From Enterobacteria phage KhF2: a DNA stretch of 64,000 nt. The DNA is taken from the sequence record KT184314.1. One strand, written 5' to 3'. The position numbers and the translations under genes are program-made. Under the pieces are notes generated by a model. The model saw only the letters and a list, made by a program, of their open reading frames with translations, ran no database searches and had not been told where the DNA came from. Numbering within the stretch: position 1 is the stretch's first letter; each line of letters opens with the position of its first letter. This document shows, piece after piece, positions 18,905 through 22,177 of this stretch.

Positions 18905-18991
18905 TTTTGAATCTCCTAGTTTAAGGATTTAGTGGTAAAGCTCTTTATCTGGGGCTTACTTTATCGAACTATAAGCCCCTTGTAAAGTACT
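18905..18991. repeat. leader module, subfamily B (hairpin GGGGCTTA...TAAGCCCC + conserved RBS)
   Basis: Near-identical to copies at 21711-21797 and 22092-22177. Confidence 0.7.
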
Positions 18992-19240
18992 TTATTTAAC
19001 TTTCTTTGAGAAAATTAGTTTAACTGCAACCGTAGGAACCTCGTCAGCGATTGTAACCAGCATCACTTTTTGAGTGACCAACTTATAACCGTTCTTTGCA
19101 GCGTATGCGGTAAAACGGTTGACATTGTAACTATAAGTTTTTGGTGTGTTATCTGGCATGTGGTAAATGAAAGGTTTACCCAAATTTTCTTCTTGTGTCA
19201 ATAATCTACAGGTATCGGGAATGTTAAAGTAGTTCATCAT
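18992..19240 (-). CDS. hypothetical small protein (array gene 7)
   Basis: ORF track; module upstream. Confidence 0.55.
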   Translation of the reverse strand: MMNYFNIPDTCRLLTQEENLGKPFIYHMPDNTPKTYSYNVNRFTAYAAKNGYKLVTQKVMLVTIADEVPTVAVKLIFSKKVK

Positions 19241-19326
19241 TTTTAGAATCTCCAGTTTAGGATTTAGTGGTAAAGCTCTTTATCTGAGGCTTAAGTTATC
19301 AACTTTTAAGCCCCTTGTAAAGTACT
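19241..19326. repeat. leader module, subfamily B
   Basis: Conserved sequence with other B copies. Confidence 0.7.
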
Positions 19327-19530
19327 TTATTTGTTATTTTTGACAACTTTTAAAACTGCAAGATAGCCTAAGCAATAAGAATCACCGAAGAGAGTCCTAC
19401 CCATGAAAGAATCCTCTTTGATATCCTTTGCAGTGACAGTTTTTTCTACGCCGTGGGAAAGGACTATATCACCAACTTTGATATCTTTGATGTGTGTAGT
19501 TTCAATGGTTAAACCATTAATAATAGCCAT
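19327..19530 (-). CDS. hypothetical small protein (array gene 8)
   Basis: ORF track; module upstream. Confidence 0.5.
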   Translation of the reverse strand: MAIINGLTIETTHIKDIKVGDIVLSHGVEKTVTAKDIKEDSFMGRTLFGDSYCLGYLAVLKVVKNNK

Positions 19531-19631
19531 TTTGGAATCTCCAGTTTAGGACTTTATTTAGTGGGGAAGGTCATTCCCTCCCCGTTGATGTGTAATTTAA
19601 TCTATCTAAAAACCAGTGTCAACAAAATTTT
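19531..19631. repeat. leader module, subfamily A
   Basis: Near-identical to copy at 20396-20484, including the flanking 40 bp. Confidence 0.7.
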
Positions 19632-20036
19632 TTAGAGTTCTGCATAAATTGCATCACAGATATCGCGGAAGTCATGATTAGTCAAATTACGCTGCAACCA
19701 AGTGGCGAAAAAGTCAGCGATTGCAAAGTTAGCATCATACTCGACAGATAGCCACACTTTAACAGCAAATCGGAACATTTTCAAATCTAACTCTTTATTC
19801 ATTACCTTAGATTTGCCTAACATGTCGGACATTTCATATTGCGCACCGTCTAGTGTGATACCTGCTGCAACGTCAGCCAATGAATTTTTTACGTTTCCAA
19901 CGTCTAAAATAACGCTTTGAATCTTTCCGATAATGTTGTGCAATGTCTCATCAGGCGCTGATGATGTCATAATGTTGATTCGATTAACGGTCAAACGTGC
20001 TTTTAAGGTTGATAATTCACGGTTATTAATAGCCAT
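19632..20036 (-). CDS. hypothetical protein (array gene 9); start moved to second Met
   Basis: ORF track start at 20051 would translate the conserved RBS (GGAGAAC) as MENLK; Met at 20036 follows the RBS at normal spacing. Confidence 0.5.
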   Translation of the reverse strand: MAINNRELSTLKARLTVNRINIMTSSAPDETLHNIIGKIQSVILDVGNVKNSLADVAAGITLDGAQYEMSDMLGKSKVMNKELDLKMFRFAVKVWLSVEYDANFAIADFFATWLQRNLTNHDFRDICDAIYAEL

Positions 20037-20122
20037 TTTTAAGTTCTCCAATTTAGGATTGAGTGGTAAAGCTCTTTATCTGGGGCTTAAGATATCAACT
20101 CCCAAGCCCCATGTAAAGTACT
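20037..20122. repeat. leader module, subfamily B
   Basis: Conserved sequence with other B copies. Confidence 0.7.
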
Positions 20123-20395
20123 TTACATTAAATGCAGTTTTTTGCCTTTTACTATAATGTAACTCGATGCGCTATTGCTTTGCACATCCTGATAAATTCT
20201 GCGCAAACGTCCTTCGTAGTGTACTTTCCAACTGGTTGGAATCTTTTTACCGTATCCCGTAGCAGTTTTTTGGAGTCCTGCTACTTGCCAATCTAAGATA
20301 TGAGTTTCAGCCTGTAAATCCTCAAAGTGCATGACACCATCTACATAGTGACGTAGTGTGACATTTAAAGTACGACCGTTGTTAGTAGTATACAT
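20123..20395 (-). CDS. hypothetical small protein (array gene 10)
   Basis: ORF track; module upstream. Confidence 0.55.
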   Translation of the reverse strand: MYTTNNGRTLNVTLRHYVDGVMHFEDLQAETHILDWQVAGLQKTATGYGKKIPTSWKVHYEGRLRRIYQDVQSNSASSYIIVKGKKLHLM

Positions 20396-20484
20396 TTTGG
20401 AATCTCCAGTTTAGGACTTTATTTAGTGGGGAAGGTCATTCCCCCCCCCGTTGATGTGTAATTTAATCTATCTAAAAACCAGTG
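20396..20484. repeat. leader module, subfamily A
   Basis: Near-identical to 19531-19631. Confidence 0.7.
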
Positions 20485-20817
20485 TCAACAGTTTTGTTTT
20501 CGTTTGCTCAATTCTTGAACAATTACAGCGTAGTAGTCTTTTAAGTCACTGACATTTAAAGCATTTATCAGAGAATTATAATCATCAACTAACTGAAAAT
20601 CATCTTTGAAGATGTCACTTATCTGATAGGTTTTCGCTTTGTATCTGAAGCTCATCTCTAGCCGCTTTATTTGCTCATCACTGAGACGCCCTAGAAAGCT
20701 CTCTACAAGGTTATTGCTGACCTGCTGTGTGATTGCCTTATTTGCTAGATTATAGGCTTTATATGCCTTATATAGCGCGAAAATGGCAATGATTGCAGTG
20801 ATACCAGTCATTAACAT
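20485..20817 (-). CDS. hypothetical membrane-anchored protein (array gene 11)
   Basis: ORF track; N-terminal hydrophobic helix; overlaps upstream gene by 7 nt (no module). Confidence 0.5.
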   Translation of the reverse strand: MLMTGITAIIAIFALYKAYKAYNLANKAITQQVSNNLVESFLGRLSDEQIKRLEMSFRYKAKTYQISDIFKDDFQLVDDYNSLINALNVSDLKDYYAVIVQELSKRKQNC

Positions 20818-21107
20818 GGTGTTTCCTCTTTACGTGATACTTTGCCATTTACAGTTATCTCATAGGATTCTAATAAATCGCTTTTAGACTTTACAGGACT
20901 TTTAAAAGTATCATCATAAATATTAACTTGCAATACAGGTTTTTTATATTCCCTGCAACTATTCCATAAGCAAATCACTACACGACGGCCTTTTATTTTG
21001 CCGTGTAACCATTCCATAACATCATGACTATTTCTTGATGTCTCGATAAAATCAATTTTGTTGAGTAACTTGCTTAGATTTTCACGAACTTTATTCGATA
21101 ATTTCAT
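20811..21107 (-). CDS. hypothetical small protein (array gene 12)
   Basis: ORF track; module upstream. Confidence 0.55.
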   Translation of the reverse strand: MKLSNKVRENLSKLLNKIDFIETSRNSHDVMEWLHGKIKGRRVVICLWNSCREYKKPVLQVNIYDDTFKSPVKSKSDLLESYEITVNGKVSRKEETPC

Positions 21108-21197
21108 TTTAGAATCTCCAGTTTAGGGGTTAATTTGATAAAGCTCTTTATCTGGGGCTATCATATCAGCTTGTTAGCCCCGTGTAAAGAGGTCTAT
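21108..21197. repeat. leader module, subfamily B (divergent copy)
   Basis: Hairpin GGGGCTAtcatatcagcttgtTAGCCCC and conserved RBS block. Confidence 0.65.
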
Positions 21198-21710
21198 TTA
21201 GTTCTTAAAGATATTCATCACTGAGTCTTTTAATGATTCCAAACGTTCTAATACTTCAGATTCTGCGTCTGAGTTGTTCACTTCTTCTTTCAGTCTGTCA
21301 TCTAAATCATCGCCGTCACTATAGCACCAATCGAAAGCGTAACCAATATAAAAACTGTCTAAAATTGTTTGACCATTTGCATCGACAACTTTCGCGGCAA
21401 GGTTGTATTCTGAAGCCTCTAAATCTCTTTCTAATTCTTTCTGTAAGCTTGTGTAAGCCTCTTTTGATGGATTTTCCCGGCCTTGTTTTGCATAGTCACT
21501 TGAAAGCTGTTTAAGGCTGTAATGTAAAGGGATTGCATATTTAAATTCATTACGCTGACAGTTAGGATTTTTAACAGTCACGCCGCCTTGATGGTCATCT
21601 GTAAACTTCCAATTATCAAGATTATGGCTTGCTTCGTAGCAATTAACAGCTTCGTAAATGATGGAAAATTTTTCTTTTACAACTTCAAAGGTAGCGTCTA
21701 CAGTTTTCAT
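21198..21710 (-). CDS. hypothetical acidic protein (array gene 13, 170 aa)
   Basis: ORF track; module upstream. Confidence 0.55.
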   Translation of the reverse strand: MKTVDATFEVVKEKFSIIYEAVNCYEASHNLDNWKFTDDHQGGVTVKNPNCQRNEFKYAIPLHYSLKQLSSDYAKQGRENPSKEAYTSLQKELERDLEASEYNLAAKVVDANGQTILDSFYIGYAFDWCYSDGDDLDDRLKEEVNNSDAESEVLERLESLKDSVMNIFKN

Positions 21711-21797
21711 TTTTGAATCTCCTAGTTTAAGGATTTAGTGGTAAAGCTCTTTATCTGGGGCTTACTTTATCGAACTATAAGCCCCTTGTAAAGTACT
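21711..21797. repeat. leader module, subfamily B
   Basis: Near-identical to 18905-18991 and 22092-22177. Confidence 0.7.
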
Positions 21798-22091
21798 TTA
21801 TTTGTTAATTTTCAGCTTTGCATAACTTCTCATTGTACGAATGGGGGATGTTAATGCTACGCGTCTAATGTATGCCTTTTTCGTGTATACAGTTGTCTTC
21901 CCGATAGTGTTTACACATGTAAAAAGGTTTATCGGTGAATTTTTTAACTTCAACTGTTTATCAACCTTCACGCCCCACCTTACAGCAGATTGTTTTCCGT
22001 TGTCAACCACTTTCCCGCATAACTTTTTAGCCATGATACGAGCGTCATCACGAGTCTTTGCGGTAATTACAACGTTTTTGATAATAGCCAT
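21798..22091 (-). CDS. hypothetical basic protein (array gene 14); start moved to second Met
   Basis: Same MENLKMAI leader artefact as gene 9; RBS-proximal Met at 22091. Confidence 0.5.
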   Translation of the reverse strand: MAIIKNVVITAKTRDDARIMAKKLCGKVVDNGKQSAVRWGVKVDKQLKLKNSPINLFTCVNTIGKTTVYTKKAYIRRVALTSPIRTMRSYAKLKINK

Positions 22092-22177
22092 TTTTAAGTT
22101 CTCCAATTTAGGATTTAGTGGTAAAGCTCTTTATCTGGGGCTTACTTTATCGAACTATAAGCCCCTTGTAAAGTACT
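22092..22177. repeat. leader module, subfamily B
   Basis: Near-identical to 18905-18991 and 21711-21797. Confidence 0.7.

Follow-up and report, generated by a model that had tools for sequence, protein, structure and literature searches.

Organization of the early-gene array

The 64-kb window, the whole stretch of DNA analysed here, belongs to the genus Felixounavirus and matches Enterobacteria phage KhF1 at 100% identity. Its minus strand carries, at positions 16178..23136, an early-gene array in which 17 small ORFs are interspersed with 14 repeated intergenic modules, as defined by the ORF list, the module and terminator scans and the KhF1 match. In the terminator scan the array is bounded by two canonical intrinsic terminators, one lying upstream at 23494..23535, equivalent to t13 of Felix O1 (Table 2 of PMC3185647), and another that closes it at 16178..16196, equivalent to t23 (PMC3185647), both on the minus strand. 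The modules, seven of type A and seven of type B, are ~90 nt long and all lie on the minus strand within 16.4–23.14 kb, with no A or B module found by the module scan in the rest of the window. The repeat copies singled out in the first-pass annotation correspond exactly to intergenic intervals, from stop codon to ATG, of minus-strand genes. Types A and B have their 3′ part in common (ACTAAAT..CCTAAACTGGAGATTC..AAAATG). The ORFs flanking the repeats had been described as unrelated and this is confirmed, as the array ORFs fall into 17 distinct PHROG families, none with an assigned function, 0/17 contain a Pfam domain and blastp reveals no link among them at E<1e-6. The B module has 1668 matches, spread over 289 phage records of which essentially all are from Ounavirinae, and the A module has matches in 251 records, while in 596 Gb of prokaryotic genomes module matches remain at chance level.

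From its upstream end, and always on the minus strand, the array begins with a type A module (23045..23136) in which the scans identify TTGACT-N17-TAATAT, 10 nt, a hairpin (GGGGAGGG-AAUGA-CCUUCCCC, 23077-23097), the Shine-Dalgarno (SD) sequence GGAG and the ATG of the overlapping ORFs 1 and 2 (22650..23044, comprising 22856-23044 and 22650-22871). A type B module with loop AAAAGCTGATATC and the −10-like TATCTT after TGn (22562..22652) precedes ORF 3 (22178..22561, 127 aa, phrog_4495). Two type B modules with hairpin variant v1 (loop TATAGTTCGATAAAG) follow: 22092..22180 before ORF 4 (21798..22091, 97 aa from the ATG at 22091), and 21711..21800, identical to the module at 18905-18994, before ORF 5 (21198..21710, 170 aa), a homologue of Felix O1 ORF16, whose expression is maximal at 5 min. 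The module at 21108..21200, with stem GGGGCUA/UAGCCCC and TGnTATGAT, represents a divergent sub-type, B′, which is position-specific across genomes; it alone serves the overlapping ORFs 7 and 8 (20485..21107, comprising 20811-21107 and 20485-20817). ORF 9 (20123..20395, 90 aa) is preceded by a type A module (20396..20488, TTGACA-N17-TAAATT) with a KhF1-specific G9 run in its hairpin, and ORF 10 (19632..20036, 134 aa from the ATG at 20036), a homologue of Felix O1 ORF20, by a type B module with loop GGGAGTTGATATC (20037..20125).

The type A module at 19531..19622 (TTGACA-N17-TAAATT) lies before ORF 11 (19327..19530, 67 aa). The type B module of ORF 12 (18992..19240, 82 aa) has loop AAAAGTTGATAAC and a 3′ arm, GCCUC, that gives a sense-strand G·U pair (19241..19329); a third v1 module (18905..18994) precedes ORF 13 (18362..18904, 180 aa). 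A further kind of intergenic element, which belongs to neither type A nor type B, is positioned at 18296..18361 before ORF 14 (18062..18295, 77 aa) and consists of the hairpin AGCCCCUCACAGGGGCU followed by UUUU and AGGAGG. The remaining modules are all of type A: 17971..18064 (TAGACA-N17-TAAATT) before ORF 15 (17629..17970, 113 aa), 17411..17500 (TTGCAA-N17-TAAATT, hairpin variant GGGAGG-GAUGA-CCUCCC) before ORF 16 (16880..17410, 176 aa), 16814..16905 before ORF 17 (16550..16813, 87 aa) and 16484..16575 (TTGCAA-N17-TAAATT, hairpin GGGAGG-CGAUAA-CCUCCC) before ORF 19 (16235..16483, 82 aa). ORFs 15, 16 and 19 are homologues of Felix O1 ORF21, ORF22 and ORF23, respectively. The module at 16814..16905 overlaps its upstream ORF: the −35 TTGACG falls in the last part of that ORF, whose stop codon doubles as the TAA of the −10 hexamer TAAATT.

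Promoter-like elements and RNA hairpins of the modules

All A and B modules were flagged by the consensus promoter scan. In type A a sigma70-like promoter is followed by a GC hairpin of 8 bp, the SD and the ATG. Among the 73 copies parsed by regular expression the spacer is always 17 nt (the pattern allowed 16–18), the −10 hexamer is TAAATT in 62 and the distance from promoter to hairpin is 10 nt in 71. The 143 unique copies of type B share an invariant CTTTACA, with a hexamer exactly 17 nt 3′ of it that is conserved at its outer positions (T 95%, A 95%, T 96%) and free at the middle three (49%, 35% and 34%); the G of a preceding TGn is 85% conserved. An interrupted hairpin of ~20 bp holds this −10-like element in its loop; the hexamers, TAAAGT, TATCTT and TAACTT, resemble TATAAT weakly. 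The T4-type early promoters of promoter-early stem-loop (PeSL) cassettes read TTTACW-N17-TAYWAT (PMC2839356, PMC4122927). Felix O1 encodes no RNA polymerase, and its array genes ORF16, 20, 21 and 22 reach their expression maximum at 5 min (PMC3185647). From consensus and conservation we infer that the modules act as host sigma70-type promoters, although CTTTACA also lies in the lower RNA stem, so that its conservation has two possible causes. Since the type B −10 is inside the hairpin loop, type B would work as a promoter in its DNA form, the long hairpin forming in read-through RNA from upstream promoters.

The predicted minimum free energy is −25 kcal/mol for type B (z-score −4.5) and −17.9 kcal/mol for type A. 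In the alignments 96% of hairpin cells are paired against 92.4% in shuffles, 0/500 of which reach the observed value, and pairing falls to 32–58% of cells with a slid pairing partner. Four hairpin pairs have changed on both sides. Compensatory switches include UA/AU 104/27, AU/UA 100/22 and GC/UA 107/15. Variation of the 3′ arm is biased downwards, since the IMG/VR modules were fetched by a pattern spanning that arm. Erwinia phage M7 carries GGUG..CACC in every B module. The sense strand shows ~231 G·U cells and few A·C cells; the dominant type A stem contains a sense-strand G·U pair that is an A·C mismatch if read on the opposite strand. The compensatory changes and the restriction of G·U pairs to the sense strand support the hairpin as an mRNA structure.

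Identity and homogenisation of the module copies

Type B copies 18905-18991 and 21711-21797 are identical at 87/87 positions, and identity reaches 99/99 nt over 18899-18997 / 21705-21803, including the upstream stop codon and the codons ATGAAA. The copy at 22092-22177 matches either of them at 82/85 aligned positions, with three additional gap positions. Its first 67 nt, which comprise the stop codon, the −35, the hairpin, the loop TATAGTTCGATAAAG and AGATAAAGAGCTTTACCACTAAATCC, are unchanged, and every difference falls within the final ~20 nt, around the SD. The v1 13-nt loop is thus common to three KhF1 B copies, while the identity over about 85 bp claimed for all three in the first-pass annotation applies to two of them and extends over only ~67–74 nt in the third. 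Type A copies 19531-19631 and 20396-20484, noted earlier as near-identical apart from a C-run, indeed agree at 87/88 positions plus one inserted base, and both differences are located in the hairpin G/C run (GGGGAGGG versus GGGGGGGGG on the sense strand). An exact repeat of 87–99 nt in 64 kb cannot be the product of chance.

Across nine Felixounavirus genomes orthologous modules have a mean identity of 92.3% (minimum 79%), and the ORFs neighbouring them are 90.0% and 91.9% identical. Module divergence similar to that of coding sequence had been proposed as evidence against recent duplication or conversion. Such similarity is found for orthologues, but it favours conversion rather than refuting it, since selection that lets orthologous modules diverge about as much as ORFs cannot alone keep paralogues at 100%. 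The hairpin variants are likewise discordant with position. The v1 hairpin precedes ORF families 4, 5, 10 and 13 in different genomes, six variants occur at position 10 and six at position 13, a rare variant is present in Felix O1 alone at two positions, and for 36 of 47 B modules a hairpin at least as close is found at some non-orthologous position. Between KhF1 and Michonne orthologous modules are 80.3% and non-orthologous modules 79.1% identical, and paralogous modules reach 86.1% identity in one genome and 84.8% in the other. Thus, between genera modules group by genome and not by position, the signature of concerted evolution. For the B′ module homogenisation is not apparent. The homogenising source may be intragenomic conversion or repeated recombination with co-infecting or unsampled relatives.

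Cassette gain, loss and mosaicism

At least seven clean cassette deletions are observed in relatives, with junctions inside modules and 60–95 nt that align to both flanks; deletion here denotes a presence/absence difference between relatives, with which insertion is equally compatible in direction. ORF 12 is missing in 4/8 relatives, where a B/B junction is found, and ORF 17 is missing in Felix O1 and Seyj1-1, which display an A/A junction. Citrobacter phage Michonne contains a perfect 430-bp tandem duplication of a module and its ORF, the homologue of ORF 4, as well as a solo module whose ATG is fused to the next module, and chimeric modules are present in SeKF_63 and ULIM3. When KhF1 is compared with KhF3 and SeKF_63, 100%-identical blocks alternate with blocks of 92–94% identity. 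By the author's reading 7/13 block boundaries lie in modules, which make up 23% of the array; several lie inside ORFs, so the enrichment in modules is moderate, and an automated test of tract ends gives p = 0.011, with caveats. ORF families also occupy differing positions between genera, with an ORF1-like gene mid-array in Michonne and a rearranged order in Erwinia phage M7. Module divergence, hairpin discordance, concerted evolution and module junctions are four independent lines that support the earlier proposal, in which the modules are still being homogenised or ORF-plus-module cassettes were recently inserted.

Alternative explanations

Strong purifying selection on regulatory sequence alone, without duplication, conversion or cassette movement, would fit the invariance of CTTTACA, GGGG..CCCC and the SD region across 132–143 unique copies. 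It is nevertheless a very improbable source of the identity, because between genomes orthologous modules have diverged as far as neighbouring ORFs, the loop and the middle −10 positions are free and yet three KhF1 copies have the same 13-nt loop, hairpin variants disagree with position, modules group by genome between genera and indel junctions fall in modules. That a short-read assembler collapsed or copied repeats into spurious identical copies is scarcely credible: exact 87–99-nt repeats may confuse such assemblers and the KhF1-only G9 run resembles a homopolymer error, but gene order and module positions are the same in independently sequenced genomes, modules occur in 289 records, the sequence on either side is unique to each copy and a typical read is longer than the repeats. 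Active mobility, in which ORF and module excise as a mini-circle and reintegrate, and a phage protein may recognise the hairpin or the palindromic TAAAG-NN-CTTTA boxes, finds a precedent in the PeSL mini-circles detected in RB49 and phi1 and would accommodate both the different positions of ORF families in different genera and the solo module of Michonne with its fused ATG. We regard it as unlikely, as no recombinase is evident in the array (17/17 ORFs lack Pfam domains), junctions fall at varying points over 60–95 nt of homology and not at a single site, and homologous exchange between direct repeats explains every observed event.

Two further alternatives concern what the modules do. The array might be driven by type A promoters only, type B being an intercistronic RNA element, such as an RNase III-type processing or stabilising hairpin, with CTTTACA and TAnnnT kept for RNA or protein recognition. 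The ~20-bp interrupted helix with its 3x3 internal loop, covariation and sense-only G·U pairs, the location of CTTTACA in the lower stem and internal loop, and the weak −10 hexamers all speak for this possibility, which we consider rather unlikely but deserving of more weight than the other alternatives. TAnnnT with a free middle, fixed 17–18 nt from a −35-like hexamer and with TG two bases upstream, is what marks an extended −10 promoter and not a hairpin loop; moreover, the −35 hexamer is the same as in T4-type early promoters and the loop otherwise varies freely. Were type B an RNA element, the evolutionary conclusions would be unchanged. A reused Rho-independent terminator, the label given to type A hairpins in the KhF1 and KhF3 GenBank records, is highly improbable: the annotated terminators and the genes are on opposite strands, A and B hairpins in the array have no T/U run after them on either strand, the terminator scan flags no canonical terminator inside the array, G·U pairs form in sense RNA only and the dominant type A G·U pair would be a mismatched A·C in RNA from the opposite strand. 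The lack of a U-tract thus leaves a PeSL-like terminator role unsupported.

Comparison with known phage repeats

Among known systems the modules most resemble the PeSL cassettes of T4-like phages (Arbiol et al. 2010, PMC2839356; Comeau et al. 2014, PMC4122927), but they have a different anatomy and occur in another phage subfamily. Both are repeated intergenic composites of ~70–90 nt with an AT-rich stretch, a sigma70-like promoter (N17), a GGGG..CCCC stem-loop, an SD and an ATG, dense among small ORFs of unassigned function in variable regions; in both, the composites are where close relatives differ by insertions, deletions and replacements, and they are proposed as conserved linkers for modular shuffling. 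In contrast, the KhF1-type hosts are Ounavirinae phages. PeSLs have their stem-loop immediately before the −35, where it was shown to act as a transcription terminator, whereas the KhF1 hairpins have no U-tract and lie downstream of the promoter (type A) or around the spacer and −10 (type B). KhF1 modules, unlike PeSLs, also incorporate the upstream stop codon.

The start-associated sequences (SAS) and extended SAS (ESAS) of Cluster K mycobacteriophages (Pope et al. 2011, PMC3203893) are similarly conserved, asymmetric SD-containing repeats that all face one way and sit a few nt before the ATG in many non-structural genes. The upstream stop codon is sometimes within the repeat, and about half of the SAS are directly preceded by an imperfect inverted repeat. 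They are unrelated to the KhF1-type modules in sequence, host and phage group, SAS/ESAS carry no promoter and no recombination role was proposed for SAS; ESAS inverted repeats have little support for RNA pairing, whereas KhF1-type hairpins show compensatory changes. The Mordin genome announcement likened a 26-bp repeat, CCAACAATCCTAAACTGGAGAATCTA, to SAS (PMC4611695), and this repeat is the 3′ part of KhF1-type modules. Among the direct repeats listed for Felix O1 (Whichard et al. 2010, PMC3185647), the 57-bp CTTTACATGGGGCTTAAAAGTCTGTAAAGTAAGCCCCAGATAAAGAGCTTTACCACT (between genes 15/16 and 19/20) is a type B module and the 39-bp TTGACACTGGTTTTTAGATAGATTAAATTACACATCAAC (between genes 18/19 and 20/21) the type A promoter; they were published only as repeats, not as promoters or hairpins and with no family or recombination link, and temporal control and promoters of Felix O1 were stated as unknown (PMC3185647). 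Parts of the repeats were thus noted earlier in Felix O1 and Mordin, without the promoter-hairpin-linker reading.

The host-takeover module of SPO1 has many strong early promoters before small genes. Repeated intergenic phage sequences that provide promoters to consecutive small genes are a likeness shared with SPO1 and halovirus HF2; sequences and hosts are unrelated, and a nested hairpin architecture like that of KhF1-type modules is not known to be involved. In HF2, intergenic repeats carry promoters (PMC8707807).

Proposed role of the modules

Each linker would supply the upstream stop codon, a sigma70-type promoter, a stable sense-RNA hairpin, a strong SD and the next ATG. The type A hairpin may be a 5′-terminal stabiliser and the type B hairpin, as a guess, a processing, stability or insulation element. 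Placed in direct orientation 0.3–0.9 kb apart, the 14 linkers would be substrates for ectopic homologous recombination, in which putative recombination enzymes would take part. Non-reciprocal exchange could copy one linker over another, which would explain the 100% identical copies; unequal exchange between linkers could delete or duplicate an ORF cassette and exchange between co-infecting relatives could swap cassettes. The repeats are thus probably two families of ~90-nt expression linkers of an early accessory array in a Felix O1-type phage, and they double as recombination points.

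An array of unrelated small ORFs separated by two kinds of intergenic module

Positions 16000–24000 of the window are 100% identical to phage KhF1 (KT184313.1; genus Felixounavirus, subfamily Ounavirinae), whose name stands for the window sequence in the comparisons that follow, and match approximately 250 other Felix O1-type phages at 60–99%. An array of 17 ORFs, all small and all encoded on the minus strand, extends from ~23.1 kb down to 16.2 kb. The ORFs belong to 17 different PHROG families of unknown function and are mutually unrelated, as the first-pass annotation had stated for the flanking ORFs, with no link between them by blastp. 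Searches against Pfam and PHROGs provide neither a Pfam domain nor a function, one sub-threshold DUF3139 match being set aside. Most of these small ORFs are unannotated in the GenBank records of KhF1 and KhF3. Type A and type B modules, seven of each and 14 in all, are interspersed among the ORFs; they share a single orientation and are described here on the sense (minus) strand, and none is found in the rest of the 64-kb window. Every module carries GGAG 7–9 nt before the ATG. In the array, a terminator scan detects canonical intrinsic terminators at just two places, 23535–23494 and 16196–16178, which mark its ends.

The five intervals to which the first-pass annotation had drawn attention are exact stop codon-to-ATG intergenic gaps, and all are members of this 14-module set, which it had not noticed. 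The near-identity that it described is confirmed. The type B copies at 18905–18991 and 21711–21797 are identical at 87 of 87 positions, and the match grows to 99 of 99 once the stop codon and the two initial codons are counted in. The third copy, at 22092–22177, was said to be essentially identical to these two, which holds for its first 67 nt; over its whole length 82 of 85 aligned positions are identical and three further positions are gaps, the differences being located around the Shine-Dalgarno sequence. The type A copies at 19531–19631 and 20396–20484 are identical at 87 of 88 positions, with one inserted base, and both changes fall in the G-run of the hairpin.

Several features of the array and its borders lie outside the two module types. 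The gene directly upstream of the array, at 23565–24350, encodes a 261-residue protein whose sole domain found in domain searches is a Macro domain (Pfam PF01661, E = 1e-7), annotated in relatives as a phosphatase or O-acetyl-ADP-ribose deacetylase. The minus-strand region 23150–23480, located past the upstream terminator and before the first candidate early promoter, displays four direct repeats of ~22 nt, TCATTTT(C)A(G/A)AA(T/C)TGTGCAGGTA, together with the C-rich tract CCCAACCCCTCTCCCCCTCTTACTCCCCCTCTCCCC, and could be a regulatory or protein-binding region. Within the array, the 218-nt intergenic region at 17411–17628 is unusually long and holds two extra TTGACA boxes (..GTGTTGACAATACCCCTTGACATTGG..) upstream of a regular type A module. 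A third, non-repeated intergenic element at 18296–18361, before the ORF at 18062–18295, consists of the hairpin AGCCCCUCACAGGGGCU with UUUU and AGGAGG after it; its length is 77 nt in all eight genomes that carry it, and weak internal termination or attenuation is a possible role. At the other end, ~14600–16200 comprises 1.6 kb without a convincing ORF and with dense short direct and inverted repeats made up of 10–11-mers resembling CTTAACAAG and CTATAGAG. This stretch is the counterpart of the Felix O1 ORF23–ORF24 gap, and the GenBank records of several relatives open in or near it. Since Felix O1-type phages carry terminal repeats of ~600 bp, it is a candidate for the genome ends or an origin; the UAB_Phi87 record, in which the genome ends were sought, opens elsewhere than at its terminal repeat.

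Type A modules combine a candidate promoter with a hairpin predicted to be 5'-proximal

Type A modules display, in sense-strand order, an A/T-rich stretch, a -35 box (TTGACA, TTGACT, TTGACG, TAGACA or TTGCAA), a 17-nt spacer, a -10 hexamer (TAAATT, or TAATAT in the first module), 10 nt, the hairpin GGGGAGGG-AAUGA-CCUUCCCC and finally ACUAAAUAAAGUCCUAAACUGGAGAUUC-AAA-AUG. The spacer is 17 nt in the 73 parseable copies from many genomes, with a pattern that permitted 16–18, and the distance from the -10 hexamer to the hairpin is 10 nt in 71 of these 73 copies parsed by regular expression. The sites are flagged by a consensus promoter scan, and the annotators of the AYO145A record marked the type A site as a promoter. 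In compact versions TAAATT itself provides, with its TAA, the stop codon of the upstream ORF, and the -35 box lies within coding sequence. The sense-strand hairpin has a folding energy of -17.9 kcal/mol, the antisense fold being weaker, and the stem contains a sense-strand G·U pair that becomes an A·C mismatch on the opposite strand. In KhF1 the hairpin at 20426–20452 carries a run of nine G on the sense strand, where every relative has GGGGAGGG; this is either a sequencing error in a homopolymer or a genuine mutation in which G·U pairs preserve the stem.

A transcript starting ~7 nt past the -10 hexamer would have this hairpin ~3–6 nt from its 5' end. In E. coli mRNA decay, 5'-terminal stem-loops such as that of ompA guard against 5'-end-dependent attack by RNase E. 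Given this precedent and the predicted position near the 5' end, the most likely role of the type A hairpin is that of a 5' stabiliser.

Type B modules enclose a candidate promoter within a conserved RNA helix

The sense strand of type B modules reads, after the stop codon, AAAUAAAGUAC-UUUACA-N-GGGGCUUA-loop-UAAGCCCC-AGAUAAAGAGCUUUACCACUAAAUCC-UAAACUGGAG-N-AUG, and the conserved AUAAAG at the 5' edge holds the stop codon of the upstream ORF. Across 143 unique copies CTTTACA is invariant, and the hexamer located exactly 17 nt past it has T, A and T at positions 1, 2 and 6 in 95%, 95% and 96% of copies, while positions 3–5 are free (majority base 49%, 35% and 34%); a G two bases before the hexamer is conserved in 85%. 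The resulting TGnTAnnnT has the pattern of an extended -10 promoter and marks a candidate promoter, as judged from sequence conservation. The T4-type early promoters found in PeSLs, the promoter-stem-loop elements of T4-like phages, have the form TTTACW-N17-TAYWAT, and type B shares their -35 box TTTACA (PMC2839356, PMC4122927).

The candidate promoter is enclosed in a long interrupted hairpin, in which a 3x3 internal loop separates the lower stem (6+5 bp) from a 9-bp upper stem capped by a loop of 11–13 nt; fold energies are -24 to -26 kcal/mol and z-scores -3.3 to -4.5. Pairing is seen in 96.0% of cells among 44 distinct copies representing four genera, against 92.4% in column shuffles (none of 500 reaching the observed value) and 32–58% when the partner strand is slid, and four pairs are altered on both sides. 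In a set of 132 copies compensatory switches are seen between UA and AU (104/27), AU and UA (100/22) and GC and UA (107/15), one pair is represented by four types, and ~231 G·U cells, which pair in the sense RNA only, are accompanied by few A·C cells. All four B modules of Erwinia phage M7 have GGUG..CACC instead of GGGG..CCCC. The covariation, the sense-only G·U pairs and the M7 exchange show the type B structure to be a conserved feature of the sense transcript. The fourth of the M7 modules, at ~7398–7460 of its record, overlaps the annotated start of gp111 (7404), so this start codon is probably mis-annotated.

Transcripts initiated at the candidate type B promoter would have their 5' end at the 3' foot of the upper stem, so that the full hairpin would form only in RNA reading through from upstream. 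Such read-through across type B modules is to be expected because terminators are found only at the ends of the array. The helix resembles an RNase III substrate and is not followed by a U-run; cutting, stabilisation of the upstream message and attenuation of transcription are candidate roles.

A reading of the hairpins of both types as intrinsic terminators was rejected. Type A hairpins are labelled 'Rho-independent terminator' in the KhF1 and KhF3 records, on the strand opposite to the genes and thus on the wrong strand, and the sequence that follows the hairpins is ACUAAAUAAAG or AGAUAAAGAG rather than a U-tract. Rfam 15 covariance models have no match at E<=1 in 15500–24000 of the window.

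Modules occur almost exclusively in Ounavirinae and retain their layout across genera

The type B query matches 1668 places in 289 phage records, typically 3–10 per genome, and all of these records are Ounavirinae save one or two that are oddly labelled; the hosts of the module include Felixounavirus, Mooglevirus, Suspvirus, Kolesnikvirus and a Hafnia phage. The type A query matches 1129 places in 251 records. Matches in IMG/VR are all located on contigs of ~54–94 kb, with several copies each. In 596 Gb of prokaryotic genomes the B-core pattern, a 19-mer, gives seven single matches in unrelated MAGs, which are treated as noise because ~4 are expected by chance. Erwinia and Citrobacter phages have genus-specific stems, loops and RBS segments and keep the layout, namely stop codon, CTTTACA, hairpin with TGnTAnnnT inside, AGATAAAGAGCTTT and Shine-Dalgarno sequence.

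Modules show concerted evolution

The array was compared in nine Felixounavirus genomes, an orthologous position being defined by the same upstream and downstream ORF families. Orthologous modules are on average 92.3% identical (minimum 79%), while their upstream and downstream ORFs are 90.0% and 91.9% identical. The modules thus diverge much like the neighbouring coding sequence, a result that the first-pass annotation had taken as one that would speak against homogenisation or recent cassette insertion; homogenisation is still supported, as detailed below. Since modules drift as fast as their neighbours, constraint is not the explanation of the identical copies, and the 100% identity between paralogues in KhF1 needs a recent common origin.

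Hairpin variants are distributed without regard to position. One type B variant, v1, sits before ORF families 4, 5, 10 or 13 (numbered down the array) depending on the genome, and positions 10 and 13 present six hairpin variants each. The rare AAAAGTCTGTAAAG loop occurs in Felix O1 alone, at two sites, in the element listed by the Felix O1 authors as a 57-bp repeat (PMC3185647). In 36 of 47 type B modules an equally close or closer hairpin is found at a non-orthologous site, and only B', the divergent module before ORF 7, is consistently position-specific. At greater distance, Citrobacter phage Michonne has 15 ORF families in common with KhF1, in nearly the same order. Between the two phages orthologous and non-orthologous modules are almost alike in identity (80.3% and 79.1%), whereas paralogous modules within KhF1 and within Michonne reach 86.1% and 84.8%. 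Because paralogues within a genome are closer than orthologues across genera, the modules undergo concerted evolution.

The homogenisation may proceed either through intragenomic conversion or through recurrent exchange with co-infecting relatives that have not been sampled. Nine clustered sites distinguish the KhF1 and KhF3 versions of the module before ORF 5, next to an identical upstream ORF; the downstream ORF is also divergent, which makes inter-phage exchange equally possible. Five of the six differences between KhF1 and the near-identical SeKF_63 lie in modules, a distribution considered as evidence of conversion and discarded, as it fits weaker constraint on non-coding sequence too.

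Cassettes are gained and lost at modules

Gene-content differences, which are unpolarised with respect to insertion and deletion, have their junctions in modules. ORF 12 is missing in four genomes and ORFs 3–12 in LF82P5, both with B/B junctions. Felix O1 lacks ORFs 3–4 (B/B), 11–14 (A/A) and 17 (A/A), and KhF3 lacks ORFs 15–16 (A/A). In ULIM3, without ORFs 1–2, the junction falls in the 3' segment common to types A and B. At each junction 60–95 nt of the surviving module align to both KhF1 flanks. Chimeric modules are directly recognisable, as in SeKF_63, where the hairpin of one module is joined to the RBS of the next. Michonne displays a perfect 430-bp tandem duplication of a module plus ORF 4 at 1734–2602 of its record (gp101 = gp102, 258/258 nt); this includes an 'empty' but complete module, in which the ATG runs straight into the CTTTACA of its neighbour.

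In comparison with KhF3 and SeKF_63, KhF1 is in addition mosaic: its sequence alternates between blocks that are 100% identical and blocks at 92–94%. Seven of 13 block boundaries, read from mismatch lists, fall in modules, which make up 23% of the array; the remainder lie inside ORFs, as expected of general homologous recombination between similar genomes. An automated test of identical-tract ends (15 of 37 ends against 23% expected, p = 0.011) was set aside as weaker and confounded by isolated point differences in modules, and the firm evidence for recombination at modules is therefore that of the indel junctions. Taken with the position-discordant hairpins and the within-genome similarity, these junctions support the homogenisation or cassette movement proposed in the first-pass annotation; the finding is real and its evolutionary reading is supported.

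Relation to known systems and expression

The closest known system is the PeSL of T4-like phages, in which cassettes of promoter, stem-loop and Shine-Dalgarno sequence are likewise repeated among ORFans in variable regions, indels and replacements between close relatives map to the elements, and a role as linkers for modular shuffling was proposed (PMC2839356, PMC4122927). Both systems have a sigma70-like early promoter with a ~17-nt spacer and an AT-rich upstream stretch, identified here by consensus and conservation, and both end in a Shine-Dalgarno sequence and the start codon of the downstream gene. In contrast, the PeSL stem-loop directly precedes the promoter and terminates or attenuates transcription arriving from upstream, whereas here it lies downstream (type A) or encloses the spacer and -10 hexamer (type B) and lacks a U-tract; moreover, PeSLs reside in T4-like myoviruses and the matching records here are Ounavirinae. 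As both the stem-loop arrangement and the phage group differ from those that define PeSLs, the modules are PeSL-like in the evolutionary sense and should not be filed as PeSLs. PeSLs are also known for circular ORF-plus-PeSL molecules.

The start-associated sequences (SAS) of Cluster K mycobacteriophages and their extended form (ESAS) resemble the modules in layout only, in that an imperfect inverted repeat lies directly upstream of the start-associated repeat. The SAS consensus is the 13-bp GGGATAGGAGCCC, 3–7 bp before the start codon, against CCTAAACTGGAGATTC here, and unlike ESAS the present hairpins show RNA-type covariation (PMC3203893). The Mordin announcement likened a 26-bp RBS-proximal repeat to SAS (PMC4611695), and the Felix O1 authors listed 57-bp and 39-bp repeats without interpretation (PMC3185647). 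In the open-access literature, a search for transcriptome or TSS data on Felixounavirus and for any previous account of the modules yields only this repeat list, the Mordin note and the single AYO145A feature, and no paper that joins the module pieces together was found there.

Felix O1 has no RNA polymerase gene and lacks known sigma-modifying proteins, and its authors could give no account of how early transcription is organised (PMC3185647), a statement repeated in the VpaE1 paper. In the RT-PCR table of the Felix O1 authors, the 5-min class contains the array genes ORF16, 20, 21 and 22, and the 25-min class contains ORF17, 19 and 23 (PMC3185647); these classes are no TSS map and are compatible with host-polymerase promoters in the modules. 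On sequence grounds, promoter-hairpin-RBS linkers that also serve as substrates for recombination is the most fitting description of the modules.

Felix O1-type phages are used in Salmonella typing and in biocontrol of E. coli and Salmonella, and this reading gives one of their arrays two conserved mRNA hairpins and ~14 candidate promoters for early genes. It explains the differing left-arm gene content of otherwise near-identical isolates, and marks the array as prone to rearrangement and to errors of assembly and annotation, such as hairpins recorded as wrong-strand terminators. The modules would also provide compact natural promoter-UTR parts. The promoter-inside-hairpin design is distinctive; its principle has precedent and represents no new kind of biology. 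The idea behind PeSLs, that regulatory linkers are recombination sites, is extended to another subfamily of myoviruses, a second one, in which the modules are built differently; this suggests convergent use of one strategy.

A more far-reaching reading, offered tentatively and with more doubt than confidence, is that type B is a portable bifunctional element, a promoter for host RNA polymerase as DNA and, as RNA, a long interrupted read-through helix that RNase III or a phage factor cleaves or binds. If so, the same ~60 nt would serve both roles, each cassette would be expressed and insulated independently of its neighbours, and the built-in stop codon, Shine-Dalgarno sequence and ATG would make any ORF body 'plug-and-play'. 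The Ounavirinae linkers would then constitute a dedicated system, possibly acting via excised mini-circles, for gaining and trading early accessory genes such as those of host takeover or anti-defence.
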